The notes: a model not told the origin generated them from the letters alone. A stretch of 64,000 nt of DNA from Planctomycetota bacterium (GCA_965661685.1 CBFIET010000122.1:93106-157105); one strand, 5' to 3'. Counted from the first letter of the stretch, positions 1 to 24,566 are shown. A program made the numbers and translations.

Positions 1-687
1 ATGGCCCTGGCAAGAAAACTCGGCAAGTATCCGATCCTGGTCAAGGATTCACCAGGTTTCCTGGTCAACCGTTTGCTCTTGCCGTACCTCGATGCGGCCT
101 CGAGATTATTGCTCGCCGGAGTCAGCGGCTCACACATCGACAAGGTCGCCAGAGCTCACGGACTTCCGATGGGCCCTTTTCGTTTGATGGACGAGGTGGG
201 ACTCGATATCGGGATCGAGGTTCAGGAAACGCTGCATGCTGCCTTCGGAGAGAGAGCGGCGTCCTCGCCGATGCTGGTGAAGATGGTCGAGAAGGGCTGG
301 CTTGGCAAGAAATCAGGAGTTGGCTTTTACCGCCATGGAGGTCGTGATTCCACCTGGAACGGTGACATCGCTCATATGATCCGTGTGCAGCACTCCACCA
401 GGAGCGAGGCCCAGATCATCTCATCCCTGATCGATCCGATGATCGACGAGGCGGCACGCTGCCTCGATGAAGAAGTGGTCGCCGATGCAGGACTTCTGGA
501 TCTTGCGATGGTGATGGGAACAGGATTTCCTCCTCATCTTGGAGGACCGCTGCGGGCTGCCGATGCAGAGGGGCTCGATGTCATCGAGAAGAGGCTCCGG
601 GCAGCCCATGAAGATGGATCGGCCCGGAGCCCCTGTGAAGGCCTCGTCGATCGAGCCCGACGAGGCGTTGGTTTTTACAGTAGTTGA
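1..687 (+). CDS. 3-hydroxyacyl-CoA dehydrogenase, C-terminal domain portion (5' end probably outside window)
   Basis: Translation KYPILVKDSPGFLVNRLLLPYL...MLVKMVEKGWLGKKSGVGFY matches the C-terminal dimerisation region of FadB/FadJ-type 3-hydroxyacyl-CoA dehydrogenases. ORF begins at nt 1. Confidence 0.7.
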   Translation: MALARKLGKYPILVKDSPGFLVNRLLLPYLDAASRLLLAGVSGSHIDKVARAHGLPMGPFRLMDEVGLDIGIEVQETLHAAFGERAASSPMLVKMVEKGWLGKKSGVGFYRHGGRDSTWNGDIAHMIRVQHSTRSEAQIISSLIDPMIDEAARCLDEEVVADAGLLDLAMVMGTGFPPHLGGPLRAADAEGLDVIEKRLRAAHEDGSARSPCEGLVDRARRGVGFYSS

Positions 688-3519
688 TTACAGTTCGCAG
701 GACCCACAGTTCGTGACCGGTGCGGCTCCGGCTCCACCTCCGAACAGGAAGATCAGCTGGTGAACCACATCGCCGAGGTTGAGGATCTGATCTCCGTTGA
801 CATCTGCCGTTCTATGGCACGGCAAATCTGCACTCATACCAAAGAGGTACAGCACCAGGCTGATCGGATCGGAAGTGTCTTCCAGCCCATCGGCATTGAC
901 ATCTCCCATGGCAAGCACACGGACCTCATTAGCCCGGGTCATCGTCGAAACGGTACCGCATACGCCGTATGCGTTGAGGGAGACCGAGTAGAAACCGGGA
1001 GTTTCGTACAGGTAGCTCACGTCGCCGTTGTTCTGAACCGTCTCACCATTACCGAAGTCCCACATCAGGTGATCTAGCGTACCGGTGGAAAGATTCGTGA
1101 AGTCAGCGCAGAAGGGAGCGACACCTGTCCAGTCCGGTAACTCAAATTGCGCTACCGGCGGTTCACAGATGATCACGTTGATCTGCGAGAAGGCTGTTCC
1201 GCATGGATTCACCACGGTGAGTCTCGCCGTGTAGGTTCCGGGCTGACCGTAGATGTGTACGGTATTCAGATCAGCAGATCCTGTTCCATCCCCGAAATCC
1301 CAGGAGATCGAACTGGCAGCGCTTCCTTCGATGATGCCACTGAAGCCGATGGGGTAGGGGATATCGGCGACGACGACGGTACTGTTGGCAGTGACCTGGG
1401 GCGCAACACACGGCGCATCATCGCCGTGAATCACCAGATTCGCTGCGTTGACCCAGCCCTGAGAACTCAACAGTGTGTCCTGGACTGTAATCACCCAGGT
1501 TCCCTGCATCGATTCTCCAAGGAAAGCGTCGAGGGATCCTTCCGGTTGCATCCGGATACCGGTACCGACCAGTGTCTCGTCGTAATTGATTCCCGATCTG
1601 TCGTAGATCATGTCGATCAGGCTTCCGGCATGGCCACCGAAGGACTCCAGGATACATACGGTTCCCGCTGGCGAGGTCAGCGTCACATGCACCTGATCGA
1701 GAGAGGGGTGTTCCATCGTCAGTGCCAGTTCAAGATCGGCGATGGCAATGTTCTCGAGTACCTCGATATTCAACTCCAACGGTGCTCCTGCGACATTCAT
1801 CTGCAGTGGCTCCAGCATGGTCAGGCTCCAGTTCTGAAGCACGCCATCGTCGGTACTGATCGAATCCACCACCTGTAACTGCCAGTTTCCCTGGCTGTTT
1901 TCGCCGTGGAAATCCGCCATCGTTCCTGGTCCTTGCGCCATCATCGACTGACCCGTTGGCAGATCAGTTGCCGAATAGGGGATACCGTAATTCGCGAATG
2001 TCGTGTGGATTTCGCCGCTACTTGTCGGGCCCTGGTCGATCAGTGTCACCTGCGTCCCGGACGGGCTACTCAGGCTCACCGAGATATCGGACAGGAAATC
2101 GTGGGTGAGGTCGATGGACGCGCCGGGGTTCAACACCGGCTGACTGGCGGTTGCGACGATGATATCCGTGGTTACCGCCGCATTGCTGATTGCCAGATTC
2201 TGAGACCCTTGAAGGAGGATCGGATCGACCACTCCCTGGTAATTCCTCTGTGTCATCTGATTGATGCGGATACACCAGTTGGAGATGGCACCATCATCAC
2301 CTGGGTACAGATCGGTGACGGTGAAGAGCCAGTTTCCGTTCAGTTCTTCTCCGTTGAAGTCACTCAGTGTTCCCGGGCCATCCGCCGTGAGTCCGGCACC
2401 GTCATCATCGAAGGTGATACCCCAGAGAGTTCCGTTGTACTGCGTTTCGTTGAGAAGGTTTACCGTGGTTCCCTCGGGACTGGTCAGTAGCACCCGTAAA
2501 TCCGCAGCAAAACTATGTTCCATCTCGAGATACAGATCTACATCACGAACGGTTCCGTGGGCATCGAGGCTCACCATCTCCATCAACAAGGCTGAGTCGC
2601 TGATGGGGCGGACGCCTCCAGGCGCACATACCTGATACTCGTGCTGGATGGAGGGATTCGGTTGAGGGCACGCAGGAATCGACTCCAGCTCGTAAATTGC
2701 ATTGAGAGAAGCATCGACGATGTACAGGGAAGGGATTCCGCTGGAACCGCTCGATGCATGGGCGATTCCATTCACGAAACCACCGATCGATGAGATGTCG
2801 GTTTCGTCGCGAATGACGCCGAGTTCATCCATGGTGCTGACAGCACTGACTCCAGTTCCACCAGGGATGTTGTGGGGAACCAAAAGCAGGTTGCAGTCGG
2901 AACGATATGCGATGCTATTTCCCGATCCACTTCCAGCAGGATGGCCGATGATTCCACCGAGGAAATCACCGGTCAGGGAATGCTCACTGTACTGATCATG
3001 TGTGACATCAACCGCCCAGATCGTTTGCTCCTCGGTGATGCAGATGTCGCCGATGATTCCGCCACCTGGAAGATCGATGTTTCCTGCGATCTGGGGATCG
3101 GAACCATCCTTCAGGCTTCTCCACAGGTTCGGGGATGCACCCTGCACCGCCCAGTAGATGTAGTCCCCGTAGATGTCGAGACCACTGGTGGAAACACTGC
3201 CCACTGGATTGTTGATTGTGGAGACGACTCCTGCAGCCAGGTTGTCGATGTTGTAGAGGTGTGTGGTTCCACTGAAGAGATCGCAGACGTACAGCTTTCT
3301 CTCCACCTCGTCGACGCAGATCCCCAGGGGATTACTACCGGAGTGGGACACGAACTGGATCGAGTCGCCGGGAGCCATCGGCCCGCTGGAGGAAGCAGTG
3401 GTAGGAAGTAGTGCGCCGCTGGTTTGGGATACGGTGCCTGGCTGCTGGTTCTGTCCATTTACAAACGTAGCGGACAGCAGGATCAGCAGGCACACGGATA
3501 CAAGATGAAACGACCTCAT
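688..3519 (-). CDS. secreted multidomain protein: signal peptide, YWTD/NHL-like beta-propeller region, 3x proprotein-convertase P-domain-like repeats, PKD-like domain, C-terminal type-I dockerin
   Basis: N-terminal MRSFHLVSVCLLILLSATFVNG signal. Three repeats of the type HSFAADLRVLLTSPEGTTVNL / THDFLSDISVSLSSPSGTQVTL / EHPSLDQVHVTLTSPAGTVCIL (P-domain-like). WDFGNGE...GFYSVSL (PKD-like). C-terminal DVNADGLEDTSDPISLVLYLF + DVNGDQILNLGDVVHQLIFLF, two Ca-binding dockerin segments. SD-like sequence upstream of the ATG at 3519. Confidence 0.7.
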   Translation of the reverse strand: MRSFHLVSVCLLILLSATFVNGQNQQPGTVSQTSGALLPTTASSSGPMAPGDSIQFVSHSGSNPLGICVDEVERKLYVCDLFSGTTHLYNIDNLAAGVVSTINNPVGSVSTSGLDIYGDYIYWAVQGASPNLWRSLKDGSDPQIAGNIDLPGGGIIGDICITEEQTIWAVDVTHDQYSEHSLTGDFLGGIIGHPAGSGSGNSIAYRSDCNLLLVPHNIPGGTGVSAVSTMDELGVIRDETDISSIGGFVNGIAHASSGSSGIPSLYIVDASLNAIYELESIPACPQPNPSIQHEYQVCAPGGVRPISDSALLMEMVSLDAHGTVRDVDLYLEMEHSFAADLRVLLTSPEGTTVNLLNETQYNGTLWGITFDDDGAGLTADGPGTLSDFNGEELNGNWLFTVTDLYPGDDGAISNWCIRINQMTQRNYQGVVDPILLQGSQNLAISNAAVTTDIIVATASQPVLNPGASIDLTHDFLSDISVSLSSPSGTQVTLIDQGPTSSGEIHTTFANYGIPYSATDLPTGQSMMAQGPGTMADFHGENSQGNWQLQVVDSISTDDGVLQNWSLTMLEPLQMNVAGAPLELNIEVLENIAIADLELALTMEHPSLDQVHVTLTSPAGTVCILESFGGHAGSLIDMIYDRSGINYDETLVGTGIRMQPEGSLDAFLGESMQGTWVITVQDTLLSSQGWVNAANLVIHGDDAPCVAPQVTANSTVVVADIPYPIGFSGIIEGSAASSISWDFGDGTGSADLNTVHIYGQPGTYTARLTVVNPCGTAFSQINVIICEPPVAQFELPDWTGVAPFCADFTNLSTGTLDHLMWDFGNGETVQNNGDVSYLYETPGFYSVSLNAYGVCGTVSTMTRANEVRVLAMGDVNADGLEDTSDPISLVLYLFGMSADLPCHRTADVNGDQILNLGDVVHQLIFLFGGGAGAAPVTNCGSCEL

Positions 3520-3703
3520 CGGGAGCCTCCGTCGAGATGAATTGAGTCTGGGTTCGATTCCGGGGCAGTGGGATGCAGGGGGACTGTCCCTCGGATCTAA
3601 CGTGTATATCTATTGTAAACCTTGTTAACTCCTCGTCTACCCCGGCTTCGGGTGCAGATTCCTCCGATCCAAGTTACCCTGCAGATGACTGGAGGATGTT
3701 CCG

Positions 3704-5149: not shown

Positions 5150-6678
5150 AGTTCGCGGTTGCCCAGCAGCCGCTTGACGATGTCATCCCTGCTGGCATTC
5201 CGAGCCGCACCGATGGCGGCATCCTGCCAGCGCAATGCATCGGCGTGGCGACCACTCGCGGCCAGTAGCATCGCCTTGCTCTCCACCTCTTCCAGCGTCG
5301 TCTGATTCGCCAGCAGTTCTTCGATTTCCGCGAGAGACTGCTCGATCTCGCTGGCGGTCGGATTCTCTGATGTTGCGAGCAATCGGGCGTGCATCGACAC
5401 GAGACGCCGGTTCCGTCCGGTTGCAGAGAGTCCCTCGACACACACCCTCAGCGCCTCCTCGGTCAAATCCATTCGTATGAAGCACACCGCCTCCGCAAGC
5501 CACGCTGCACTCTGGCCGGGAAGTACGGTACGTACACGCCTCATCTCCTGAGCTGCGGTGTCGAACTTCTTGAGCCTCCTGAGGGCATTGGCTCGATTGA
5601 ATCGGGCATCGGTATTGGCAGGATATGCGAGAAGAGCGCGGTCATAGCACTCGATGGCTGCCTCGTCATCTCCACGAGCGGCATGAATCACACCGATGTC
5701 GAACCACGCGGTTGTCGAGGAGGAATCGAGGCGAAGTGCTTCCTGGTAACAAACGATCGCTTCGGGATATCGCTTCAGTTTAGCGAGGGCAGATCCCATG
5801 TTGAGATGTGCGGTAGATGCATCAGGAGCCGCTCTCACCGCCATCTCGAACTGCTCCAGCGCCTTGTCGTAATATCCTTCCTTGAAGAAAGTGGTACCAC
5901 GATTGAGAGGAATTCTCGCTCCGATGGGTCGAGATCGAACATCGGCAAGCCAGCGATCGGGCACCCTTGGAAACGCATCCCCTCGAGACTTCATCTGCCG
6001 TTCTGCTTCATCGGTTCTGCCAGTATCACGCAGCGCCAGTCCGTACGGATAGCGGACTCCAGTGGCTCCTGGAGACAACCTCAGCGCTTCCTCCAGGTAG
6101 ATCACCGCCTGTTGTGGGTCATCCGCCTGCAGTGCCAGGCGTCCGAGTCCGGCAAGGGCCTGGGCGCAGAGGGGATCGACATTCAACATCCTCTGGAAGT
6201 GGGCGATGGCTGCGGCGTCTTGCCCTTGCTGACGCTGCAATTCAGCCAGGGCAGCAAGTGTAGGCATGTGATCCGGCTTCTCCTCCAGCACCACTCGATA
6301 GAGGGAGATCGCCTCCTGCACGTTGCCAAGATCCGCTTCGATTCGTGCCAGCAGATATTTCCACCGGGTTTGCCGGGGATCTTCCTCGATGGCGATCCGG
6401 TAAAGAGAAGTTGCCATCAGCAGCAGGTCATATCCGTGGTAGGAGATGGCGACATCTCCGATCACATTTGAACGCTGCTCAGCTGTGGAGTCGCCAGGAA
6501 TCGAATCGAGACGGGAGTACTCTTCTCTCAGATGATCGGCAACATTCGCCTCGAGTCCCAGCAGTGGTGGAGGGGGGGGCCAGCGGGAAGGATCGCTGCA
6601 GCCGGCAATTACCACGCAACACAACATCCAGCCAGCCGTGATGACACTCCATGACCTGTAAGGTTGCCTCTTCACCAT
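5026..6678 (-). CDS. TPR-repeat lipoprotein
   Basis: N-terminus ...VVIAGCSDP (lipobox-like). Multiple 34-aa TPR-like units (AxxxYxxALxxxP pattern repeated). Start overlaps the stop of the upstream FG-GAP gene, indicating an operon. Acidic S/E tail. Confidence 0.65.
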   Translation of the reverse strand: MVKRQPYRSWSVITAGWMLCCVVIAGCSDPSRWPPPPPLLGLEANVADHLREEYSRLDSIPGDSTAEQRSNVIGDVAISYHGYDLLLMATSLYRIAIEEDPRQTRWKYLLARIEADLGNVQEAISLYRVVLEEKPDHMPTLAALAELQRQQGQDAAAIAHFQRMLNVDPLCAQALAGLGRLALQADDPQQAVIYLEEALRLSPGATGVRYPYGLALRDTGRTDEAERQMKSRGDAFPRVPDRWLADVRSRPIGARIPLNRGTTFFKEGYYDKALEQFEMAVRAAPDASTAHLNMGSALAKLKRYPEAIVCYQEALRLDSSSTTAWFDIGVIHAARGDDEAAIECYDRALLAYPANTDARFNRANALRRLKKFDTAAQEMRRVRTVLPGQSAAWLAEAVCFIRMDLTEEALRVCVEGLSATGRNRRLVSMHARLLATSENPTASEIEQSLAEIEELLANQTTLEEVESKAMLLAASGRHADALRWQDAAIGAARNASRDDIVKRLLGNRELYSRGFPASDPWPEEESSSSPPSGEVESSEDSGEASQDTSP

Positions 6679-8456
6679 CTCTCACCCTGCCCCTGGACGA
6701 TGACGTGGTATCGATCCACATCCAGGTTGGAAAAGGTCTCGATGGTTCCGTCGTTCCAGTGCACTTCCATCGAGCACTTCTGAACCACCTTGCCGAGGCC
6801 GACGACCACACGGGGATCGTTACTGCACAGGTAAGAGCCACCGCGCGAGGAGTTTCGATATCTGGGGGGATTCGATCCCTGACGGAGCACCAGCTGGATC
6901 CCACTGATCACATCACCCCGGGGAGATCGCAGATCTGCACCGATCCAGTGTCCTGCATCTCCCTGAAGATTCTGCAGCACCCGAATCTCTCCGCAGTTAT
7001 TGGTGACGACGATGTCCACGTCTCCATCGTCATCGATGTCTCCAAATGCAGCACCACGCCCTACCGCAGCTTCTTGCAAGATCGTTGCGCTGCGCGGATC
7101 GAGTTCGACAAATGTTTCGCCCTGTCGATTTACGAACACCTGGTCCGGTTGGTCGAGTGGATACGGATCGCCGGCAGCGACTAGCTCTTCCATCCGCTTG
7201 ACCGCTCCATTGGCGATGAAGAGGTCGAGCCAACCATCGTTATCCAGGTCGAACCAGGCGGTTCCGAAGCCGGTCCAGCGACGGCTCGCCACGGCGAGAC
7301 CGGCACGGGCAGTCTCATCGTTGAAGTTGCCCTTGCCATCGTTGCGATAGAGAGTATTGGTCTCGCCGGTGAGGTGGGTGAGAAAGATATCCTGGTCCCC
7401 ATCTCCGTCAAAATCTGCGAGATCAGCGCCCATCGAGGCCTCTGGCCTTCCATCTCGATTGAAAGCACACCCCGTGAGCAATCCGGCATCTTCGAATCGG
7501 AAGGGGGCAACTTGCTTCCAGAAACGGTTGGCCATCCCATCGTTGGCGACGTAAAAATCGAGTTCTCCATCCCCGTCGAGATCGCTACAAACCACCCCCA
7601 GGCCGGCACCTGGAGCGGCTCCAATTCCACTGCTCGATGTCACGTCCTCGAAGGTCCCATCTCCTCGATTGCGGTAAAGACGATCTGGCAGTGGGGGGTA
7701 GGAACTGGGACCGCAATATTCCACGGCACTGCTCTCGGCAAAACAGGGTTTGTGATTGGCAAGAGTGAAATCGATGTAGGAACAGACGTAGAGATCTTCA
7801 TCTCCATCCCGATCGACATCGACAAACAGGGCACTGGTCGTCCAGCGATCGTCGTCGATCCCGGCCGTCGTTGCGCCCTCATGAAAGCGCCCCTCGCCAT
7901 CATTGATCCACAACTGATCCGTTCCGAAACAGCTCAAGAAAAGATCGAGATCCCCATCTCCATCGATGTCTGCAACGGCGCATCCCATCCCGTATCCGTA
8001 TGCCTCGATGCCAGAGAGATCGGTGACATCTAGAAAACTGGGGACTCCATTCCGATCCTTGCCTCGATTTTCAAAGAGGCGCCCCCCCTGCGGCTGACCT
8101 GCGGGAGGAGGCAGGATGCGATCGGCGGGCCCTTTATCCGCGCCGAGCAGGTTTCCCTGGGGAACGAAAAGGTCGAGATCTCCGTCTCCATCCATGTCGA
8201 AGAGAGCAGATCCAGGACCCACCGTCTCGCAGAAGTAGAGTTCACCGGTCATGCCGTTGTCGTGCCGGAAATCGATTCCCCACTTCTCCGATACCTCGAC
8301 CAGTGCCTGCGGAAACTGCTGAGAGGTACAGCCAGCGAGAAGCAGGAAGTGCAGAGATACCGCCACCAGATAAAGTGGCAGGAATAGCCACAACCGGTGG
8401 GTTCGAAACGGGGTTACACCCCAGGAATCAGATCTGAAATCGCTGCCGGGCATTCC
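6672..8456 (-). CDS. FG-GAP repeat / ASPIC-UnbV (CRTAC1-like) protein; ORF extends to 8561 but the signal/lipobox at M36 suggests a start near 8456
   Basis: Repeated DxDGDGDLDLF / DLDGDGELDFYVAN Ca-binding FG-GAP motifs and a C-terminal UnbV/ASPIC-like region. Hydrophobic leader LWLFLPLYLVAVSLHFLLLAGC follows the internal Met. Confidence 0.7.
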   Translation of the reverse strand, partial: GMPGSDFRSDSWGVTPFRTHRLWLFLPLYLVAVSLHFLLLAGCTSQQFPQALVEVSEKWGIDFRHDNGMTGELYFCETVGPGSALFDMDGDGDLDLFVPQGNLLGADKGPADRILPPPAGQPQGGRLFENRGKDRNGVPSFLDVTDLSGIEAYGYGMGCAVADIDGDGDLDLFLSCFGTDQLWINDGEGRFHEGATTAGIDDDRWTTSALFVDVDRDGDEDLYVCSYIDFTLANHKPCFAESSAVEYCGPSSYPPLPDRLYRNRGDGTFEDVTSSSGIGAAPGAGLGVVCSDLDGDGELDFYVANDGMANRFWKQVAPFRFEDAGLLTGCAFNRDGRPEASMGADLADFDGDGDQDIFLTHLTGETNTLYRNDGKGNFNDETARAGLAVASRRWTGFGTAWFDLDNDGWLDLFIANGAVKRMEELVAAGDPYPLDQPDQVFVNRQGETFVELDPRSATILQEAAVGRGAAFGDIDDDGDVDIVVTNNCGEIRVLQNLQGDAGHWIGADLRSPRGDVISGIQLVLRQGSNPPRYRNSSRGGSYLCSNDPRVVVGLGKVVQKCSMEVHWNDGTIETFSNLDVDRYHVIVQGQGERW

Positions 8457-14110: not shown

Positions 14111-15208
14111 CTACTTCCGCATCTGCTGCCAGTACTCTGACGGCATCTCCTGGGCGAGTTTCAGAGCTCCTTGCGCTCCGGCGTACACTGCGTCGTCGAC
14201 GATGGTCACGCGACCTCCGCCCAGTTCCTGCAGTCCTCTCTCCAGTGCTTCCTGAAGACCGAATACCTGCGAACCACCGCCACTGACGATGACCCTGTTG
14301 CGGATCTTGTGCTGGAACTCGGGATCGAAGGTGGCAACCAGCGACTGAATTCCGCCGGTGATCGAAGGGATCAACTCCTCGACTGCCTGACGAATCTGGT
14401 CGGTGATATCGATCTCGGTCGGCTTTCCAGCGACCGGGAAGGTCACCAGTGCCCGCTTGTCGCTATCCACCACGCTGCTGAAGCGCTCCTTGGCCTTCTT
14501 GACCATGTTGTGTGTGAACTGCACGGCGGGGTGAGCCTCCTGGATCAACTTCATCAGCTGGCGATCGACGTAGTTTCCTGCCCGGAACAGGGTCACCTGG
14601 TCCTCGGCGTCGGGCAGGCTGCCCGCCATCCGGCACAGGTCGATGGTTCCCGCTCCGATGTCGATGACGATGGCGTTCTCCAGGGCGTCGAGGGCATAGG
14701 CAACCGCAAACGGCTCCGACACCACCATGACTCCCTCGATACCCGCCTCACGTGCCAGATCGACGATCGCTTGCTTGTTCTCTCTGGTCGCTTCTGCCGG
14801 GGCTCCGATGACGGCACACACCGCCTGATCGGGACGGGGGTTACACGACTGACGAAGGGCACTGAGAAGCGTGACTCCCGCCTTCCTCGACAGTTCCTTG
14901 GCGGAACCGTCCATCTCGGTGTAGGCGAGGTTGCCGTCCTTGAGAGGGAAACAACAGTTCAACGCCAGTCGATTCTCGTGAACCGAATCTCCTACCAGCG
15001 TGGCCGCGCCCAGTACCTTTGCGGAGACACTGTCCTTGGGCCAGCCGACCAGGCTCGCCATCACGTCTCTCGATCCATTGGATCCGGCGATGGCACTGCG
15101 ACTGGTTCCCAGGTCGATTCCCACGTGCAGGATACTGTTCTTCACATCGATCCGTGGCGTGGCTACGTCTCTGGTGTTCTTTGCTTTCAAGTTGTTTTCC
15201 GGGGTCAT
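14111..15208 (-). CDS. MamK-family actin-like ATPase (orphan, no magnetosome context)
   Basis: Colinear similarity to MamK over the whole length: VGIDLGTSRS (phosphate-1), VGWPKD, CAVIGAP, VVSEPFAVAY, IDIGAGTIDLC (phosphate-2), QVTLFRAGNYVD, IVSGGGS (adenosine), GALKLAQEMPSEYWQQM C-terminus. SD AGGAAGAAGAAGG upstream. Confidence 0.8.
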   Translation of the reverse strand: MTPENNLKAKNTRDVATPRIDVKNSILHVGIDLGTSRSAIAGSNGSRDVMASLVGWPKDSVSAKVLGAATLVGDSVHENRLALNCCFPLKDGNLAYTEMDGSAKELSRKAGVTLLSALRQSCNPRPDQAVCAVIGAPAEATRENKQAIVDLAREAGIEGVMVVSEPFAVAYALDALENAIVIDIGAGTIDLCRMAGSLPDAEDQVTLFRAGNYVDRQLMKLIQEAHPAVQFTHNMVKKAKERFSSVVDSDKRALVTFPVAGKPTEIDITDQIRQAVEELIPSITGGIQSLVATFDPEFQHKIRNRVIVSGGGSQVFGLQEALERGLQELGGGRVTIVDDAVYAGAQGALKLAQEMPSEYWQQMRK

Positions 15209-15210: not shown

Positions 15211-15903
15211 CTACCTACCTTCTTCTTCCTGCGAATCTGCAGACAGAGCACGAAGTGCTACGTTTGCCTGAAACAGTTGGTCCAGGAGTTCTGATTTCTT
15301 CGAATCAAATGGGGATTGCACCTCCAGAGCATCGATCCGTGGATCTCCACTGCTGGTGAGTGCGTTGTCGGTGGCCTGCAAGGCCAGGGTCAGTTCTTCT
15401 ATTCTCATCTCGAGCCTTTCGACCTGGTTTCTCTGGGAATCTCTTACCGTGGCAAGTTCTGATCGCCAATCCCGGGCGATCAGCTTGGAGAGTTGCACCA
15501 GTAGTGCTTTTTCCCGCTGGCCCAGTGCCGATTTCTGACCGCCTGCTGGGGCGGCTTCCTCCACCTGACGCTGTTTCGGACCAGGAACCTGAATTCTTGG
15601 TTTCGCGTCGACCGTTGCTTGCCCTGCTCCAGGCTCGACACTTCCTGGTGCTGCTGCCTTGAGATCCTCTCCCAGGCAGGCGTGAGCCCGCTGCAGCAGT
15701 CTCTGCCTCGCTTCAGCGGAGATCTCCACATCACCGAGGGTCTCGAGCAGAGCACGAGCCACCGCCTTGCGAGCGGCCTCCTGGAACTGACTCTGAGAGA
15801 CGACTCGCATCTTGCGAATCCCCTTCTCCTGGAGCTGTTCGAGGTGCTGAACGGAACTGTGGGGGAGCGACAGGGGTCCCTCGCTGGGATCGGCTTGCTG
15901 CAT
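15211..15903 (-). CDS. coiled-coil protein, upstream partner of the MamK-like gene (start chosen at ATG 15903 with GGAAAGGA SD; ORF extends to 15987)
   Basis: Heptad-rich translation (LEQLQEKGIRK..., ERLEMRIEELTLALQATDNAL). Its stop TAG lies 2 nt before the MamK-like ATG. No known domain recognised. Confidence 0.55.
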   Translation of the reverse strand: MQQADPSEGPLSLPHSSVQHLEQLQEKGIRKMRVVSQSQFQEAARKAVARALLETLGDVEISAEARQRLLQRAHACLGEDLKAAAPGSVEPGAGQATVDAKPRIQVPGPKQRQVEEAAPAGGQKSALGQREKALLVQLSKLIARDWRSELATVRDSQRNQVERLEMRIEELTLALQATDNALTSSGDPRIDALEVQSPFDSKKSELLDQLFQANVALRALSADSQEEEGR

Positions 15904-16316
15904 GTCGTTCCTTTCCTGGGGTGAAGGGTCTGTTTCCATGGCACTGCAGAGATAGGAGGCAAACGGCGTGCCCGGTCTCCGCACCACTTGAACAGCGCTC
16001 TGGAGGGGGCCCTGAAGAAGATGGAGCGGCGATTCCGTGCCAAAGCGGGACCCACTGTCGAGATCATTGACAATCTCGAGTCGTGCAGATCGATACTATT
16101 GGGGGGTGCCGAAAAGTGGCCTCAGGTGCTACAATATCTATGTCTGACCGTATTTCCGCCCGGAATTGCAGTCGGTATTGAGGAAGAAGAGCCCTGCTTT
16201 TACGCAATACGTCCCCCGTAGAGGCCTATAATGCGTTTCGGCCGTGCGCCTTGCTTTTGCCCCGAGCAACTTCTTCTTCCCGTCCGAAACCTCGAGCATC
16301 GACAGGAGAAATTGCC

Positions 16317-17627
16317 ATGACATTACGCCTCCCCCTGCTGGTCGGCTGGATCACCATCCTCGCCCTCGTCACTTCGACGAGCGTGGCACAGGATTACAAC
16401 TTTCACTTCGACACCACCGCCAGCGGACCTACCGGCTCCGTAATCACCACCCGGGCGCTGATCGACAATCCCGGGGGTCCCCTCGCTGGCTGGTCGATCG
16501 GGATCTGCCACGATGACAACATGGATTTCCTCGAGATCGCCGACGGCAATGCCCCGATGACTGCCAACGCTGGCGGTCCTGCTGACTTCGTCCAGACCAA
16601 TCACTACCCGGGATTCGGAGCCAATCAGGGTGTCGTGGTCAACTTCGTCGGAACAAACGAACTTCCCATCGCCACTGATCATGAAGCCATCACGATGCAG
16701 ACGATGCTGCTTGGACCTGACGACACCACCTCGTCGATGTCCTTCTGCAATGCCGTATTCCCCGGAGAAACGAGCGAATTTGAAAACCTCGCAGTGGCTC
16801 CAGGGGGTATCGCCATCGTTCCCACCATGATGGATGGAATCGTCGAGATCGGCGGATTGCTCCCCTTCGAGTTGAGCGCGGTTCCTTCCGCTCCTTCCGT
16901 CGAGCAGGGCAACTCCATCGACGTCCAGATCATGCTCAATGCACCGGCAGAGAACTACGGTTTCTCGCTGGGATTCGCCCATTCGGGGGCGTCCCTCACC
17001 CTCGTCGGTGCGGATATCGGTAGCGCACTCGCGGTTCTCAACGGTGGCTCCGGTCCGGAATACCTGACCCTGGACCTTGACCCCGAAGGAGCCAACGGCC
17101 TGATCGTCGCCTGCCTCTACTCCGTCTCCTCGCTGCTCGCGCTTCCCGCCGGAAACGGACAGGAACTGGTGGTGGCCCACTACGATGCGCCATCTACCGC
17201 CCCTCTGGGAATCACCGGGCTCAACTTCAGCGAGGACCTGGTGCCACAGTCACCTTCTCCGCCGACCGCGATCGTCATCTCTCTGGGCCAGACCTCCGGC
17301 CCGGTAGTGACCTCGGGAACCAGCATCGAGATCCTCGAAGGAGTGGTTGGAGTTCAGTTCCAGCGTGGCGACTTCGATGGAAGCGGATCCCTCAACCTGG
17401 GTGATCCCGTCAACCTGCTCGGCTACATGTTCAACGGTGGGGCAGCCCCCCTGTGCGAGAAAATCGGCGACATCGACGACAGCGGCAGCATCGTGCTGGG
17501 AGATCCGGTACAGCTGTTGACCTACATGTTCTCCGGTGGTTCTGCTCCGGCAGAACCGTTCGATCAGTGCGGAATCGACCCGACTGAAGACGATCTGACC
17601 TGTGAGGAGTTTGACGCCTGCCCCTGA
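16317..17627 (+). CDS. secreted protein with two cohesin-like modules and a C-terminal type-I dockerin
   Basis: ATG 16317 (MTLRLPLLVGWITILALVTSTSVAQ signal). Segments GWSIGICHDDNMDFLEIADG and NSIDVQIMLNAPAENYGFSLGFAHSGASLTLVGADIG resemble cohesin beta-sandwich signatures. C-terminal DFDGSGSLNLGDPVNLLGYMF + DIDDSGSIVLGDPVQLLTYMF dockerin repeats. Confidence 0.6.
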   Translation: MTLRLPLLVGWITILALVTSTSVAQDYNFHFDTTASGPTGSVITTRALIDNPGGPLAGWSIGICHDDNMDFLEIADGNAPMTANAGGPADFVQTNHYPGFGANQGVVVNFVGTNELPIATDHEAITMQTMLLGPDDTTSSMSFCNAVFPGETSEFENLAVAPGGIAIVPTMMDGIVEIGGLLPFELSAVPSAPSVEQGNSIDVQIMLNAPAENYGFSLGFAHSGASLTLVGADIGSALAVLNGGSGPEYLTLDLDPEGANGLIVACLYSVSSLLALPAGNGQELVVAHYDAPSTAPLGITGLNFSEDLVPQSPSPPTAIVISLGQTSGPVVTSGTSIEILEGVVGVQFQRGDFDGSGSLNLGDPVNLLGYMFNGGAAPLCEKIGDIDDSGSIVLGDPVQLLTYMFSGGSAPAEPFDQCGIDPTEDDLTCEEFDACP

Positions 17628-17668: not shown

Positions 17669-18187
17669 ATGCGGCTCACTTCCTTCCCATGGCATCATCC
17701 ACTAAGATGCCGGAAGGAGGTCGAGGCCGTGGTCGAAACCGGTGCCATCGCGATTCGTTATCCACTTGAGAAATCCGCCCCCTCTCATCATGCAGAACCG
17801 CATCATGCAGAACCGCATCATGCAGAACCGCATCATCGAGAGCGGCATCCTTCAGATCCAGCGCCCCAATCACTGCTTGCCGATTCTCCATCTGCACAGA
17901 TTCCGCCGCTGGCAGGGGCGACCGTGACAGACTCCACCTCCGGCCTCAACAGTGGCGAAGCAAGCGACGATCCGGGTGTCATCGTGCTGCGCTGGTCGGT
18001 ACAGCCGGGAGAATCGATCGAGGCCGATCAGGAGTTACTGGTGCTAGCAGTGGGCAGCGAGGTCCAGGTGATCCGAGCGCCGGTTCCAGGTGTCCTCCTC
18101 AATCACTGGACGGAGGAGGGGGATCGACTCGGCCGGGGAGAAACCCTTGGATGGATCCGCCCCAGCTCCTCCGAGGCTGCGACGTAG
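17669..18187 (+). CDS. hypothetical protein with HHAEP tandem repeat and lysine-less biotin/lipoyl-like hybrid-barrel domain
   Basis: HHAEPHHAEPHHAEPHH repeat. C-terminal VIVLRWSVQPGESIEADQELLVLAVGSEVQVIRAPVPGVL resembles a biotinyl/lipoyl-attachment fold but lacks the modifiable Lys. Confidence 0.5.
   Translation: MRLTSFPWHHPLRCRKEVEAVVETGAIAIRYPLEKSAPSHHAEPHHAEPHHAEPHHRERHPSDPAPQSLLADSPSAQIPPLAGATVTDSTSGLNSGEASDDPGVIVLRWSVQPGESIEADQELLVLAVGSEVQVIRAPVPGVLLNHWTEEGDRLGRGETLGWIRPSSSEAAT
17786..17839 (+). repeat. perfect 15-nt tandem repeat (catcatgcagaaccg x3, plus a degenerate 4th unit) inside the CDS
   Basis: Directly visible at 17786-17830. Encodes HHAEP x3. Confidence 0.9.
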
Positions 18188-18653: not shown

Positions 18654-19865
18654 TCAGGTGCGACCCACCTTGGCCCGGATCGGCCGATGGGTCACCTCGG
18701 AAGTTCCGCGCAGCAGTCCATCCGGATGGATCACCTCGACCGGATGGCGCGCGATGGAAACGACGATCCCCAGCGCCGCCAGCGACACGACGATGGAGGT
18801 TCCTCCATAGGAAACGAAGGGGAGGGGAAGACCCGTCACCGGCAGCAGGCCCACCGTCATCGACAGGTTGATGGCGGCCTGAAACCCGATCTGACTCGCC
18901 AGGCCTACTGCGACCAACCGCCCGAACGGATCTCGACAGTTCCATGCAACTCCCAGCATCGTCCACACCAGGACCAGGTATCCGATCACCACGGAAAGGG
19001 TTCCGATCAGTCCCAGTTCTTCGCCGATGACGGAGAAGATGAAATCGTTGTGGTCCTCCGGGACGTAGCCCAGATCATGGTGGCTTCCCATGTGCAGCCC
19101 CTTGCCGGTGGGGCCTCCGCTACCGATGGCGATGATCGATTGCGCCACCTGATAGCCTCCTTCCGATTCGCCGGAAACTTCACCGTACCCGACATAGGAG
19201 AGGATTCGATCCTTCTGATAGTCTCTCAATAGTGGCCAGCTGGCCGGGCCACCAATCACCGCCGCCAACACGATCAGTAGCAAAAACCTCCGCATCGAGA
19301 TCCCCGCAACCCACAGCATCATCACCGTGGTGGGGATCAGGATCAGCGCGGTGCCCAGGTCTGGCTGGGCTGCGATCAGCAGGAAAGGAATCGTGGCGAA
19401 TCCCACCCAGCGAACGATTTGCAGCCAACGGTCTACACCTTCACCGGGTCGAATCAGGTGAGCGAGGAACAGAACCGTGGATATCTTCGCAAGTTCCGAA
19501 GGTTGCAATCCGATTCCACCGAAGCGTATCCAGCGAACCACACCCGCTCCGGTGGCCCACTTCCAGAGCAGCAACAGCACCAGAAGTGCCACCGATGCAG
19601 CAAAGAAAACCTGTGCAACCTGACGGAATCGGCGTGGATGGACGAGGGAAATCGCCATCATGGCGACAACTCCCACGATGATCTTCTTGAGGTGGCTTGA
19701 TGCGTAGGGACCCGGGAATCCTGTCTCCGGTCCGTCCGCAGCACTGTGCACGAAGATGGTTCCCACCATCAGCAGCCAGACTCCTGCAAGAACCAGCAAG
19801 ATGGCGGGGCCAGCCCAACCATTCTTCCAGCCAGCGATCCAGTGCGTCAGATGAAGCGACGTCAT
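18654..19865 (-). CDS. rodA: rod shape-determining protein RodA (SEDS family); start at ATG 19865 overlapping the mrdA stop (ATGA), not the 574-aa ORF start
   Basis: MTSLHLTHWIAGW... with multiple TM segments. Conserved SEDS C-terminal region ...GGPTGKGLHMGSHHDLGYVPEDHNDFIFSVIGEELG. Confidence 0.85.
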   Translation of the reverse strand: MTSLHLTHWIAGWKNGWAGPAILLVLAGVWLLMVGTIFVHSAADGPETGFPGPYASSHLKKIIVGVVAMMAISLVHPRRFRQVAQVFFAASVALLVLLLLWKWATGAGVVRWIRFGGIGLQPSELAKISTVLFLAHLIRPGEGVDRWLQIVRWVGFATIPFLLIAAQPDLGTALILIPTTVMMLWVAGISMRRFLLLIVLAAVIGGPASWPLLRDYQKDRILSYVGYGEVSGESEGGYQVAQSIIAIGSGGPTGKGLHMGSHHDLGYVPEDHNDFIFSVIGEELGLIGTLSVVIGYLVLVWTMLGVAWNCRDPFGRLVAVGLASQIGFQAAINLSMTVGLLPVTGLPLPFVSYGGTSIVVSLAALGIVVSIARHPVEVIHPDGLLRGTSEVTHRPIRAKVGRT

Positions 19866-22015
19866 CGTCGTAACTCCATCCCTCGGTGCTCCTCGAGCCA
19901 GTCGAGTATTGAAGCGAGCAGTGGCGCACAGGCTTCCCCGCCATGCTGGGGCACATCCTGCAAGGAGATGGCAAAGGCAAACTTCGGCTCCACTACCGGG
20001 GTGAATCCGATCAACCATGCATGGTAACTGGGATCGGAGGAGATCTGAGCAGATCCTGATTTCACTGCCACGTCGAACCCCGAAAGACCGTAAGAAGATC
20101 GGGATGCGGTTCCTCCACGATCCCGTACCGCAGACACCATCCCATCGATCACACTTTCGAAATGACGCAACTCGATGGCTGGTTCCGCGGGTTCGCCGTC
20201 GATCGTTGCCACGACCTTGACCCCGGGAGAACTGCCACGACAGGCGATGCTCAACGCCACCCTCGCCATCTGCAGTGGCGTCACGGTGAAGCCGCGACCG
20301 ATGGCGGTGCCCACCGGGTTGGCCCGGGGTTTCAGGCCGATCGCCTCGGAGGCGATCCCGCTCCTGCTCGATCGCCACAGGCCCAGCGATTCGCCGGTAG
20401 CGATCATCTTGTCGATTCCCAGCCTCTGACCCATCTTGTAGAAATAAACGTTACAAGAGCGGGCCAGAGCCTCCGACAGATTGACGGAAAGGCCAGCGGG
20501 ATGATTGGTGCAGCGGCTCCGATCGGGCCGTCCAGGATCGAGCACACCGTTACAGACGATCTCGTCGTCAGCGGTGACCAATCCCTCCTGTAGAGCAGCG
20601 AGCCCGACCACCGTTTTGAAGGTTGAGCCGGGATCGACCGGCCACGAACTGACTCGATCATGAAACCAACCATCTCGAGATAGACTACGAGATCTGTACA
20701 GTTCACGGTCCTTGTAGACTTCCATCCCTTGCTGGGGGAGGGAGGCCCAGCCGAAAGCAGCGCCCGTATTGACGTCGAGCATCACGATGGCACCAGTTCG
20801 TACTCCCTGCGCTTGCATCTGATCGATACAAAAGCGGCTCAGTTGCGAGTCGATGGTGAGCTGGGTGTCCGATCCCTTGATGGCGTCTGCCACATCAAGA
20901 GCGGATCCAATCGATCGCCTGCGTTGATCGAGGATGCGAACCTCGGCGCCGGGAACTCCCCTGAGATCTTCCTCGAGAACCGACTCCAGCCCCGACCTTC
21001 CGACACGATCAGCGCTGTGATGAGAATACCTTCGAACCGCCTCGAAGACCCTCAGGTCGCGGAGAACCAGCCGGTCGATGATGGGTTCCTGCCGTGATTT
21101 CCAGGCGTCGACGATTTCCTCGCTGGGTAAGCCGGTATGTCCCAGCAATTGACCGAGAAAGGGGTCCAGTGGATGTACCCGGTCGTGGACTTCTTCCAGG
21201 TGAATACCAGGCCACTTTTCCGGTTCAGTACTGATGGCTACGACCAGAGAAGGGGGAACATCTTCGTGGAGGGGATGGCGCTGACGCCTGAAGACCCACT
21301 CTCGTTCCTGCAATTCCACAGCCGGATCCTGAACTCGGTCGTATGCCAGCTCGACCTTGCTCCACAGTTTCCCGGTCTCCAGTTCCAACACCTTTTCCAT
21401 CTTCCTGATACCGATCTCCCCGGCGAACAGGCCATCCGGATCGATGAAAATCGTGTAACTCTGACCAGCCTTGCTGGAGCGGATTCCCGGAAAGTCCTCG
21501 GGGCGTTTGGCGATGGCTCGGGCCACCGCTCTACCACACTTCGGATCGACACGGGTCAACCAGGGGTGCTCCTGATGATCGATATCGGTGGCGAACCTTG
21601 CCCTGATCTGCTCACGAGCTCCCTGAAGGGAGCTCCACAGGATCTCTTCATTCCAGGGGTAGCTGTCGTCAGAACTTCGCAGGATCTTGGTCAACCGCCG
21701 GGCGACCCACCGTACAGGTTCCAGTTCCGAAAGGAGAAAGGTGGCCCTCACAGCCGGTTCATCCCTGGCCAGAATGACTCCCCGAGCATCGACGATCTGT
21801 CCCCGAGGCGCGGGAGTGTAACGAATTGATCTGTGGATGCTGGATGCTCGTAAGGCATGGTCACGCCAGTCCATCCCCTGCAATTGCACAAGTCGAGCTG
21901 CGATACCCACAGACATCAGTAGGAACAGCACAGCGATGGGGATGATCCGGTTCCGCTGCATCAGATCCCCCCGTGGGATTTCGGAGTGCAGCGATTCACA
22001 GTGGATACCTCGCAC
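19862..22015 (-). CDS. mrdA: penicillin-binding protein 2 (elongation transpeptidase); alternative start at Met19 (~21961)
   Basis: N-terminal TM MQRNRIIPIAVLFLLMSVGIAARLVQLQ. Transpeptidase motifs STFK (GSTFKTVVG), SCN (ARSCNVYFY), KSG (VAVKSGSAQ). Confidence 0.85.
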   Translation of the reverse strand: MRGIHCESLHSEIPRGDLMQRNRIIPIAVLFLLMSVGIAARLVQLQGMDWRDHALRASSIHRSIRYTPAPRGQIVDARGVILARDEPAVRATFLLSELEPVRWVARRLTKILRSSDDSYPWNEEILWSSLQGAREQIRARFATDIDHQEHPWLTRVDPKCGRAVARAIAKRPEDFPGIRSSKAGQSYTIFIDPDGLFAGEIGIRKMEKVLELETGKLWSKVELAYDRVQDPAVELQEREWVFRRQRHPLHEDVPPSLVVAISTEPEKWPGIHLEEVHDRVHPLDPFLGQLLGHTGLPSEEIVDAWKSRQEPIIDRLVLRDLRVFEAVRRYSHHSADRVGRSGLESVLEEDLRGVPGAEVRILDQRRRSIGSALDVADAIKGSDTQLTIDSQLSRFCIDQMQAQGVRTGAIVMLDVNTGAAFGWASLPQQGMEVYKDRELYRSRSLSRDGWFHDRVSSWPVDPGSTFKTVVGLAALQEGLVTADDEIVCNGVLDPGRPDRSRCTNHPAGLSVNLSEALARSCNVYFYKMGQRLGIDKMIATGESLGLWRSSRSGIASEAIGLKPRANPVGTAIGRGFTVTPLQMARVALSIACRGSSPGVKVVATIDGEPAEPAIELRHFESVIDGMVSAVRDRGGTASRSSYGLSGFDVAVKSGSAQISSDPSYHAWLIGFTPVVEPKFAFAISLQDVPQHGGEACAPLLASILDWLEEHRGMELRR

Positions 22016-22475
22016 TCTTCAGGAACGGCCTCACGATATCGAGTACTGGCAACAGGATCGCTGTCACCACCGCACTCAAAAGCAACGCCGGAAACATCAT
22101 TTGAAAGGTGGGAAAGACGCCGGAAAGCATCGATTCCTGCACGCTGACGCCGATCAGCAGTGACGGCAAGATGATCTGAATACGACGATAAGGATGATGG
22201 GGATCGAACACGGTCTTGAGGAACCGAACGGTGAGTACCGTGCACAGCAATGGAACCACGGCATCGACGGGAGTTGTGATTCCGCCAAGACACCTGTGGG
22301 CAGCGACCACCACAATCATCAGCAAGAGACGTGGCCAGCGATCTACCAGTGCCATCCAGCACACGAAGATCAGCAGCGGATCGGCCATCCCGAGGGCTGG
22401 TTGCAACAATGGGCGAAACGCCACCCCCGTGAAGGTTGCCAGGATCATGATGAGGAACAACCATGAGAACCTCAC
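21996..22475 (-). CDS. mreD: rod shape-determining protein MreD (polytopic membrane protein)
   Basis: 159-aa protein, hydrophobic throughout. Positioned between mreC and mrdA with overlaps at both ends. Confidence 0.55.
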   Translation of the reverse strand: MRFSWLFLIMILATFTGVAFRPLLQPALGMADPLLIFVCWMALVDRWPRLLLMIVVVAAHRCLGGITTPVDAVVPLLCTVLTVRFLKTVFDPHHPYRRIQIILPSLLIGVSVQESMLSGVFPTFQMMFPALLLSAVVTAILLPVLDIVRPFLKSARYPL

Positions 22476-23182
22476 TGCGATCCACCTCTCGTCAGCGGCA
22501 CCAGTACCAGGACTTCCTGTACCTGTTTCAAACCCTGGCTGAGGAGGATCTTCGATTCTCGGTGGGGGATCCTGACCTCGCCAACGACACCGATCACCAG
22601 CCCCTCGGGAAAGACCGTGCCGCCACCATGGGTACGAATTACATCGCCGACGGAGAGGTCGATGTACTCCATGCGCAGGCGAGGATGCCCATGTCCTGGC
22701 CCAGGTCCACCTGCGAAGATCCCGGCACCGCCCTCCTCATCGAGGAAGGGAACCACGAAAGCAGGATCATCCGCCAGTTGAACCCTCGACCACCCCTGCT
22801 CGGAACGGACCACCTTTCCGATCACTCCGGAAGCTCCGATGATTCCCATACCCGGAGCGATCTCGACCTCTGATCCTCGATCAATACGGGCGGATGATCT
22901 CCTCGGATGAGGATCGAAGTGGGGGGTCAATCGTGCAGGGACCAGTTGATACAGCGTCCCTGCGAAGTCCGATGCGAGGTAGCGATCGATCAGATCCTGG
23001 CGCTCGATGAGTGCATCTTGTGAATCGCTGATCAGTTGCGTTCTCTGGAGAGCTTGTTCCAGAAGCTGGATGCGAACACGATCGGAGCCGGATGAGGACA
23101 CGAGGGGCTGAAGCCCGTAGCCGATCAGGGCCAGGACCAACCAGCAACCGATCGCCCAGTAAGCGCGTTCGATGCGCTTCAA
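22472..23182 (-). CDS. mreC: rod shape-determining protein MreC
   Basis: N-terminal TM followed by a coiled-coil (LLEQALQRTQLISDSQDALIERQDLIDRY), then C-terminal beta domains GDVIRTHGGGTVFPEGLVIGVV typical of MreC. Confidence 0.8.
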   Translation of the reverse strand: MKRIERAYWAIGCWLVLALIGYGLQPLVSSSGSDRVRIQLLEQALQRTQLISDSQDALIERQDLIDRYLASDFAGTLYQLVPARLTPHFDPHPRRSSARIDRGSEVEIAPGMGIIGASGVIGKVVRSEQGWSRVQLADDPAFVVPFLDEEGGAGIFAGGPGPGHGHPRLRMEYIDLSVGDVIRTHGGGTVFPEGLVIGVVGEVRIPHRESKILLSQGLKQVQEVLVLVPLTRGGSQ

Positions 23183-23214
23183 GTGACTCCCGTTCGGACC
23201 TGTCTATACGGTTC

Positions 23215-24252
23215 CTAGTAATCGTCGTCGACGGAGTCGAGGACGGAGGAATACTGATCCAGTTTCTCGAGGAATATGGCGGTTCCACGGGCCACGCAGG
23301 TGAGTGGGTCGTCTGCCACCCGCACCGGCAATCCGGTCACCTTCCGGATCGTCTCATCGAGACCGCGCAGTAACACGCCGCCACCACAGAGGACGATTCC
23401 ACGCTCCACCAGATCGGCACACAGTTCGGGGTCAGTCGTTTCAAGTGTCGACTTGATCCCTTCGATGATCTTGTCGACGGGGGGCTGCAGTGCCTCCCGG
23501 ATCTCTTCACTGGTGATTCGTGCACTGCGAGGAAGATTGCCGATGAGATCGCGCCCCTTCACCTCCATCTCGAGTTCCTCTTCGAGTGGGTAGGCGGACC
23601 CGATCCCGATCTTGATCTGCTCCGCAGTCAGCGGTCCAACCAGGATGTTATAGGTGTCCTTCATGTACTTGACGATCGCTTCGTCCATGTCATCTCCGGC
23701 GACGCGCAACGACACGCTGGTCACCACATCTGCCAGGGACAGTACTGCGATTTCTGTGGTTCCACCGCCGACATCCACGACCATGCTTGCGATCGGCTCT
23801 TCGATGGGCAATCCAGCACCGAGACCGGCAGCTCGCGGCTCTTCCACGAGGTAAACCTTGCGAGCACCGGCACGCTCCGCAGAGTTGTAGACGGCACGCT
23901 TCTCCACTGCTGTGATCCCGCTGGGAACAGCGATCACAACACGTGGGCTGAAAAATCTGGATCGGTTTTGCACCCTCGTGATGAAGTACTTGAGCATCGC
24001 CTCGGTGATCTCGAAATCGGCGATGACTCCATCCCGGAGGGGACGGACCGCTTCGATGGAGGTGGGGGTTCTGCCCATCATCTCCTTGGCGACACTGCCG
24101 ACAGCTCTTCCATCGAGAAGTACCTGGTTGGTACCTGCTTTGACCGCCACCACCGATGGCTCGCTGATGACGATTCCTCGCCCACCAACACAAACGAGGG
24201 TGTTGGCAGTTCCAAGATCGATACCAAGATCAGTAGAAAACTTCCCCACCAA
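23215..24252 (-). CDS. mreB: rod shape-determining actin MreB (start likely TTG 24252 or GTG 24249; the ORF to 24423 has no plausible upstream Met)
   Basis: LVGKFSTDLGIDLGTANTLVCVGGRGIVISEPSVVAV... Full-length MreB with all actin-fold motifs. Confidence 0.9.
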   Translation of the reverse strand: MVGKFSTDLGIDLGTANTLVCVGGRGIVISEPSVVAVKAGTNQVLLDGRAVGSVAKEMMGRTPTSIEAVRPLRDGVIADFEITEAMLKYFITRVQNRSRFFSPRVVIAVPSGITAVEKRAVYNSAERAGARKVYLVEEPRAAGLGAGLPIEEPIASMVVDVGGGTTEIAVLSLADVVTSVSLRVAGDDMDEAIVKYMKDTYNILVGPLTAEQIKIGIGSAYPLEEELEMEVKGRDLIGNLPRSARITSEEIREALQPPVDKIIEGIKSTLETTDPELCADLVERGIVLCGGGVLLRGLDETIRKVTGLPVRVADDPLTCVARGTAIFLEKLDQYSSVLDSVDDDY

Positions 24253-24566
24253 GGCCTGTGTGAAATTCTGTGCGATACGGAAAACCAAGATATGATCTCC
24301 TCGTCCGATCCCTGCCGGCACCGTGGTGCTGGCATCGAGATCAGTTTCCCCTTGAGGACTCCTGTCCTCTTTCCCACTTCGAACTCCCGCAAATTCCGGC
24401 AGGCACTCGCACCTGCTTGCCATGATATTGCATCACGGACGGGATTCCCTCACTGCTGCGCCCTGTATCATAAGCAGGAAAATGGCCGGAGGCGAGGGAC
24501 TAACACCGATCCTTGTCGCAGGAAGGAATGCGCTCGACCGCCGATCTCCGATGCGGACAGGCGCAA

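Follow-up and report, generated by a model that had tools for sequence, protein, structure and literature searches.

Adaptor scaffoldins, in which cohesins and a dockerin share one chain, are textbook parts of cellulosomes (PMC11557425). Every domain of life is also known to have cohesins and dockerins that are not part of cellulosomes (Peer et al. 2009, as cited in PMC6461901), and a "planctosome" built from cohesin/dockerin, P-domain, and LTD proteins has been proposed, without experiments, for freshwater Planctomycetes of the Nemodlikiaceae (Andrei et al., ISME J 2019, PMC6461901). Here we describe a gene for a 436-aa protein that lies at positions 16317-17627 of a 64,000-nucleotide stretch of DNA from a Planctomycetota bacterium (GCA_965661685.1, CBFIET010000122.1:93106-157105), hereafter the window. 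The protein carries two cohesins followed by a dockerin and a Cys-rich tail; judged by its sequence, it is of the kind proposed as a planctosome component and a highly diverged member of a known cohesin-dockerin kind. We consider it probable, though well short of certain, that, once secreted, it acts as a Ca2+-dependent cohesin-dockerin adaptor in a surface or envelope complex other than a cellulosome.

In its layout, with cohesins in tandem and a dockerin at the C-terminus of a chain predicted to be secreted, the protein resembles the adaptor scaffoldins of Acetivibrio cellulolyticus (ScaA/ScaB, 3l8q) and Ruminococcus flavefaciens (ScaA). The A. cellulolyticus cohesin dyad 3l8q is both its best Foldseek match and the best cohesin match of our family profile A5, and the two symmetric repeats found in dual-binding type I dockerins are present as well. 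In contrast, its cohesins are only about 10-14% identical to those of the cellulosomal adaptor scaffoldins, it falls below Pfam thresholds, it lacks a carbohydrate-binding module (CBM) or X module, no carbohydrate-active enzyme (CAZyme) client was seen in the loci that we scanned, and its host is a diderm marine planctomycete. Compared with the clostridial dockerins that we aligned, it adds a conserved four-Cys tail, and its first cohesin adds a conserved Cys pair.

The non-cellulosomal cohesins of Archaeoglobus fulgidus (2xdh) and of the Clostridium perfringens toxin complex (2vo8, 2w1n, 2o4e) are likewise used outside cellulose degradation, and in the A. fulgidus protein, too, a single chain combines cohesin with dockerin. 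The present protein differs from these in phylum, in its Cys-rich dockerin tail, and in belonging to a large, expanded family with tandem arrays and poly-dockerins. The planctosome proposal shares with our locus the phylum Planctomycetota and cohesin/dockerin proteins without a link to cellulose; its model includes an "adaptor" bearing both dockerin and cohesin (PMC6461901) as well as proteins with multiple P-domains, of which a 943-aa dockerin protein in our window has three, and in one related locus (L042) an LTD gene lies immediately upstream of a family member. The differences are that the planctosome adaptor has the order dockerin, HYR, cohesin, whereas ours is cohesin, cohesin, dockerin; that the planctosome clients are M12B and M14 peptidases, whereas no dockerin-bearing peptidase was seen in the loci scanned here; and that the lineage is freshwater Nemodlikiaceae there and marine metagenome-assembled genomes (MAGs) here. 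In the literature that we searched, there is no mention of a Cys-clasped dockerin tail, a disulfide-bearing cohesin, tandem cohesin+dockerin arrays, or the size of this unannotated family.

The features of the gene, with the evidence for each, are these:

16304..16309, plus strand: Shine-Dalgarno-like AGGAGA, 7 nt 5' of the ATG (read from the sequence)
16317..17627, plus strand: complete gene of 436 codons plus stop, encoding signal peptide, cohesin, cohesin, dockerin, and Cys tail (list of open reading frames, translation)
16317..16388, plus strand: predicted Sec-type signal peptide, aa 1-24 (hydrophobic window and family conservation, judged by eye)
16392..16859, plus strand: cohesin module 1, aa 26-181 (whole-model fold match and homology to module 2)
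16860..17345, plus strand: cohesin module 2, aa 182-343, a divergent copy of module 1 (family-profile matches and whole-protein fold search)
17364..17540, plus strand: dockerin module, aa 350-408 (a pair of 22-residue repeats, in each of which a helix follows a 12-residue EF-hand-like loop)
17370..17405, plus strand: putative Ca2+ loop 1, DFDGSGSLNLGD, aa 352-363 (among 57 family members, D352 has conservation 0.93 and D363 is invariant)
17469..17504, plus strand: putative Ca2+ loop 2, DIDDSGSIVLGD, aa 385-396 (D385 and D396 invariant among the 57 members)
17541..17624, plus strand: Cys-rich tail, aa 409-436 (conserved as GGxxPxxPFxxCGxDPTxDxLxCxxFxxCP, with CGIDPT as the orthologue form)

On its own, the protein is nearly invisible to standard searches. 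Pfam, queried with the full sequence and separately with residues 1-361 and 362-436, returned zero matches even at an expectation value (E) <= 10, as did NCBIfam; the gathering thresholds of PF00963 (Cohesin) and PF00404 (Dockerin_1) were not reached; and a phmmer search against all PDB sequences came back empty. A word-indexed search found 22 relatives, mostly in Planctomycetota MAGs, the closest of them 96% identical, and those with names are all called "hypothetical protein". We therefore rely on its family, for which we built profiles from 18 sequences (A1), from 37 cohesin-like modules (A3), and from 57 full-length members with the same architecture (A5). Against PDB sequences, A1 matches solved dockerins at residues ~351-409 (2y3n_B, E 7.4e-5) and matched no cohesin; A3 found no cohesin either, and only the broader, full-length A5 reached them. 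With A5, the dockerin match to 2y3n_B strengthens to E 3.4e-7, and module 2 (profile positions 179-306) matches the cohesins 3l8q_A (E 3.8e-4) and 5lxv_A (E 2.9e-3), with several further cohesins at about E 0.02. The A5 matches listed at E <= 1 are all chains containing cohesins or dockerins, save for two weak EF-hand carriers (E 0.23-0.35).

The relatives themselves tell the same story. When the 57 same-architecture proteins were scanned with Pfam, PF00963 was found in nine (best E 1.1e-11), PF00404 in 19, and no family besides these two appeared. One member, P0113, scores 24.1 bits against PF00404, where the cut-off is 22.9, and 11 of 30 paralogues match PF00404 as well (best E 6.1e-8). The Pfam check for both domains suggested in the initial annotation thus yields nothing for the single protein but matches to both in its relatives and family profile. 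On the single-protein searches alone, the proposal could have been discarded under the refuting condition that the initial annotation itself had set, a lack of cohesin signal in profile searches. The family is large: a HMMER search with A1 against 1.84 billion representatives of metagenome protein clusters (50% identity) retrieved 39,308 clusters at E <= 1e-3, of which 1,262 reach E <= 1e-30, including dozens of 420-450-aa proteins that align from end to end.

The predicted structure agrees with the profiles. The AlphaFold2 model of the whole protein has a mean predicted local distance difference test score (pLDDT) of 81.5, with values of 80-95 within the beta modules. A Foldseek search of the PDB matches it best to the type II cohesin dyad 3l8q (E 5.7e-12, 374 aligned columns), and single cohesins score a target-normalized template modeling (TM) score of 0.74-0.79. 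Modules 1 and 2 are homologous beta-sandwiches of ~155 aa (hhalign probability 96.6%, E 6e-10) that are only 15% identical to each other, and they have the ~140-160 residues, nine strands, and jelly-roll topology of the cohesin fold. Both modules are cohesins, module 1 by its fold and its homology to module 2, and module 2 by profile and fold. On its strand 3, module 1 has a GWSxxxCH motif that hardly varies in the family, and the same is true of its two cysteines, Cys64 and Cys144; module 2 is without this pair. A Cys64-Cys144 disulfide is plausible because the cohesin topology places the two residues on neighboring elements, strand 3 and just after strand 8.

These data bear on the possibility that the modules are generic beta-sandwiches, CARDB/DUF11-like or pilin-like, whose likeness to cohesins and dockerins reflects chance or a bias of AlphaFold. 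The lack of a Pfam or NCBIfam match to the protein and the failure of the 37-module profile to find a solved cohesin by sequence are what one would expect of such domains. But PF00963 matches full-length relatives down to E 1.1e-11, A5 reaches solved cohesins at E 3.8e-4 and, beside the two weak EF-hand matches, finds only cohesin/dockerin chains, and no scan made gave a CARDB or DUF11 signal, such domains being the example that the initial annotation had given of an outcome fatal to its proposal. This explanation is already largely refuted, and we regard it as very improbable.

The dockerin, set off from module 2 by a short linker, consists of two repeats, DFDGSGSLNLGDPVNLLGYMFN and DIDDSGSIVLGDPVQLLTYMFS, which are identical at 15 of 22 positions and start 33 residues apart, the layout of a type I dockerin (two loop-and-helix segments of ~22 residues, ~33 residues apart). 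At ligand positions 1, 3, 5, 9, and 12, loop 1 has D, D, S, N, and D and loop 2 has D, D, S, V, and D; these are acidic or polar ligands from which Ca2+ binding is predicted, apart from the non-canonical position 9 of the second loop. The initial annotation had called this dockerin "clean", which by Pfam standards it is not, and its description did not include the conserved Cys-rich extension past the dockerin (residues 409-436). Four cysteines, C380 and the tail residues C418, C429, and C435, are invariant or nearly so. We infer that C380 and C429 form a disulfide clasp, joined by C418-C435 in the subfamily to which the protein belongs. In the metagenomic protein P0025, a dockerin and a "DPTxDxxxC" tail are repeated 7-8 times as a ~95-residue unit with two Cys per unit. 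Given that the two are repeated as one unit, the tail is part of the dockerin module.

Together, the dockerin and tail are the best-conserved parts of the protein, with a mean pairwise identity among orthologues of 73%, compared with 58-60% for the cohesins. At loop positions 10-11, the orthologue group of the 436-aa protein has an L-G pair that hardly occurs outside it. We also considered that the C-terminal module might be a sorting or secretion tag; this was ruled out, as relatives carry the module at the N-terminus and in 7-9 internal tandem copies. Its occurrence at the N-terminus and in tandem fits a portable binding module.

The gene itself is well defined. Translation begins at the ATG at 16317 and the stop codon occupies 17625-17627, giving a product of 436 aa; a longer open reading frame (ORF) from a TTG at 16251 is not required because M1 coincides with the start of all aligned homologues. 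The gene call of the initial annotation is borne out by its coordinates, the Shine-Dalgarno sequence, and these aligned starts, and the peptide strings that it quoted are all present in the translation. The N-terminus reads MTLR-LPLLVGWITILALV-TSTSVA|QD, with cleavage likely at TSVA|QD, after A24. Residues 8-18 form the most hydrophobic 11-residue window of the protein (Kyte-Doolittle 2.6), A24 and Q25 are kept across the family, and A-Q-D follows the hydrophobic window in homologues; there is no lipobox cysteine in the N-terminus. The signal peptide claimed at the outset agrees with this hydrophobic window and the conserved A-Q-D, and the protein is probably secreted by the Sec route with its signal peptide cleaved after A24. 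The mature protein (16389-17624) is extremely acidic, with 51 Asp+Glu against three Lys+Arg (one Lys, two Arg), which may reflect Ca2+ bridging or adaptation to marine salt. Scans for promoters and terminators around the gene, a tRNA search, and an Rfam search gave nothing informative.

In the reading that we favor, this acidic modular protein would be exported by Sec and then lose its signal peptide. Its two cohesin beta-sandwiches would act as sockets that receive dockerin-bearing proteins, candidate clients being the P-domain/PKD protein of the window and, from genes next to paralogues, proteins with FG-GAP, NHL, and TIG domains. Its own dockerin, with two symmetric Ca2+ loops and probably disulfide-clasped to the Cys-rich tail, would plug the protein into a cohesin of another family member or of an anchor. 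In this way, several proteins would be joined in a Ca2+-dependent complex on the cell surface or in the envelope.

The candidate client in the window is the 943-aa protein, whose dockerin is located as follows:

691..903, minus strand: dockerin-like C-terminal module of the 943-aa protein (gene 688..3519), found with a hidden Markov model (HMM) of the C-terminal module (E 2e-10)

This secreted-looking protein combines three P_proprotein domains with two PKD domains, lacks a peptidase domain, and is reminiscent of the P-domain protein in the planctosome proposal; its N-terminal ~300 residues match no family. In a window-wide HMM scan it was the only other bearer of a dockerin-like module. Its gene is on the minus strand, where the initial annotation had implied the plus strand. 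That annotation had also proposed a common cohesin partner from a shared LNLGD pattern in the two dockerins. The second repeat of the 943-aa protein's dockerin has L-G at loop positions 10-11, but it is only this repeat that does, and repeats of the two dockerins are identical at only 7-10 of 22 positions. The L-G pair is at most suggestive of a partner common to the two proteins.

We compared the window with related loci, taking one genome per GTDB species, which gave 33 loci. Across the window and these loci, dockerin-bearing proteins carry P_proprotein, PKD, FG-GAP, NHL, TIG, TSP_3, and DUF7133 domains. We found neither glycoside hydrolases nor CBMs there, and these loci lack both the dockerin-bearing CAZymes and the CBM-bearing scaffoldin that define a cellulosome. 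Of the "cellulosome-like" system first suggested, only the assembly principle survives, with no glycoside hydrolase or CBM on dockerin-bearing neighbors. The accompanying remark that the genome looks non-clostridial is right, as it belongs to a marine Planctomycetota MAG lineage.

Several observations weigh against the adaptor reading. Pfam and NCBIfam are silent on the protein, and its identity to solved cohesins is 7-20%. The predicted TM score (pTM) of the AlphaFold2 model is 0.44, so the arrangement of the domains relative to one another is not reliable. The window has just one candidate client and no cohesin-only anchor, no dockerin-bearing neighbor in the loci scanned has an enzyme domain, and in a diderm host the outer membrane would have to be crossed. 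Evidence for a binding face is also slight. In canonical cohesins, strands 3 and 6 form the center of the 8-3-6-5 dockerin-binding sheet, and among the 57 family members these two strands have the highest conservation of all strands in each module. This would fit a dockerin-binding face in modules 1 and 2, weakly, since central strands of beta-sandwiches are often conserved for structural reasons.

A different role would have the cohesin-fold modules receive no dockerins at all. Their ligand would instead be, for instance, a polysaccharide, part of the cell wall, or the surface of prey or host, or they would serve as spacers, making the protein an adhesin whose EF-hand pair merely stabilizes it or tethers it to a non-cohesin surface component. 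The domains of the dockerin-bearing neighbors, FG-GAP, NHL, TIG, PKD, and TSP3, are of the adhesion type, and in many genomes dockerins far outnumber cohesins, with many non-cellulosomal dockerins having no known partner. However, cohesin-like and dockerin modules are found together systematically, in chains and in arrays, which is hard to explain if the two are unrelated, and the dockerin repeats keep the internal symmetry (15 of 22) typical of dockerins that bind cohesins. We consider both the alternative ligand and the merely stabilizing EF-hand pair rather unlikely.

The tandem arrays in question lie in MAGs that also carry the orthologue of our gene, with eight consecutive genes in one locus (L036), five in another (L037), and four to five in two more (L028 and L030), as located by module HMM matches:

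L036:4100-18095: array of cohesin+dockerin genes
L037:112-9449: array of cohesin+dockerin genes
L028:4370-11995: array of cohesin+dockerin genes
L030:2-8649: array of cohesin+dockerin genes

In most of the array genes, the C-terminal dockerin comes after one or two cohesin-like modules; others encode a dockerin alone or, in one case, only the cohesin-like modules. The dockerin-only proteins beside the arrays carry FG-GAP, NHL, TIG, TSP3, or DUF7133 domains. Among metagenomic proteins, P0025 (874 aa), P0058 (720 aa), and others have 7-9 tandem dockerin+Cys-tail modules, and some other clusters matched by A1 have the dockerin+tail module at the N-terminus.

Nearly all of the 33 loci come from MAGs of marine Planctomycetota (UBA1146, TMED53, NAT2, MCMED-G47, and others), and the few with another label (e.g. 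Bacillota MAG 7 and "uncultured bacterium") may owe it to mis-binning. Orthologues with 49-96% identity occur in the genomes of 21 GTDB species. Their conservation is about that of PGK (49-69% compared with 52-64%) and exceeds that of PBP2 in distant genomes. With the constant gene order described below, this marks a vertically inherited, single-locus gene that is conserved as much as PGK.

These patterns are the basis of the main rival to the adaptor, homotypic self-assembly, in which each copy would insert its dockerin into a cohesin on the following copy to give a head-to-tail polymer, alone or with paralogues. This would yield a Ca2+-crosslinked fiber or lattice as a structural layer in the envelope, and the protein would not serve clients as an adaptor. 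Nearly all paralogues have both cohesin(s) and a dockerin, and the poly-dockerin proteins of metagenomes could crosslink cohesins. The orthologue keeps to a single locus, at one syntenic position from 96% to about 33% identity, with a PGK-like conservation that would be unusual in a variable adhesin; the acidity of the mature protein (51 D+E against 3 K+R) recalls Ca2+-bridged surface arrays, and the near-private L-G pair at loop positions 10-11 suggests a private specificity. In contrast, the 15% identity between the two cohesins fits two different partners better than a homopolymer, and the synteny spans unrelated housekeeping genes (PGK, IMPase, aminotransferase) and is therefore unspecific. 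We judge both the polymer and its structural product unlikely, if worth keeping in view; were they real, they would amount to a new kind of bacterial surface architecture.

A bolder proposal, which we rate as a long shot, is that cohesin-dockerin pairing serves here as a structural building principle and not as an enzyme scaffold. The 436-aa protein, the array paralogues, and the poly-dockerins would self-assemble into a Ca2+-crosslinked, disulfide-stabilized envelope lattice or matrix in abundant marine Planctomycetota, and the dockerin with its DPTxDxLxC tail would be a distinct, previously undescribed subclass numbering tens of thousands of metagenomic clusters.

Standard annotation misses this protein, with Pfam and NCBIfam silent and its NCBI relatives called "hypothetical protein", although its family is very large (~39,000 clusters). 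The family points to heavy use of cohesin-dockerin assembly by uncultured marine Planctomycetota for something besides cellulose breakdown. With two cohesins and one dockerin, the adaptor candidate is a compact test case for the unverified planctosome idea, and the family could be a source of orthogonal cohesin-dockerin pairs for synthetic protein assembly, possibly disulfide-clasped and adapted to salt and Ca2+.

In the orthologues of 49-96% identity, the gene sits in a block that reads PGK, IMPase, ..., class-V aminotransferase; then an MreB-like gene and a gene for a ~250-aa unknown protein, both pointing left; then the cohesin-dockerin gene and a small lipoyl-like ORF, both pointing right; and then rodA and PBP2, pointing left. 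The divergent pairing with the MreB-like and ~250-aa genes is still present at 33-42% identity, and in one locus (L041) the rodA side of the block is lost. We rejected a functional assignment from synteny with the MreB-like neighbor and, in closer relatives, rodA-PBP2-mreC-mreB, because the genes for PGK, IMPase, and aminotransferase keep their places just as well and L041 lacks the rodA side.

In the window, the genes divergently upstream of the cohesin-dockerin gene are a second, divergent MreB/actin-like gene (14111-15208, minus strand; PF06723, E 4.6e-22) and a gene for a 258-aa protein without a Pfam match (15211-15987, minus strand). Downstream, a canonical mreB-mreC-PBP2-rodA cluster spans ~18654-24423 on the minus strand, as deduced from the gene order of syntenic loci. 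The RodA/FtsW (18654-20378, minus strand) and PBP2 (19862-22015, minus strand) ORFs overlap by ~500 bp, an artefact that arises because the ORF caller uses the first possible start; the RodA of close relatives has 403 aa. Between the cohesin-dockerin gene and this cluster lies a 172-aa ORF (17669-18187, plus strand) with 3.4 copies of the His-rich pentapeptide HHAEP, encoded by a DNA tandem repeat of period 15 at 17786-17836, and with a sub-threshold Biotin_lipoyl-like domain at its C-terminus (E 4.9e-4). A small lipoyl-like ORF also follows the gene in the distant locus L040, and a small unannotated ORF is found at the equivalent place in L041. In L042 (positions 1-7681), an operon-like row consists of ExbB, ExbB, ExbD, TonB_C, TPR, an LTD protein, and the family member P0043, which has two cohesins and a dockerin; the end of the LTD gene abuts the start of P0043.

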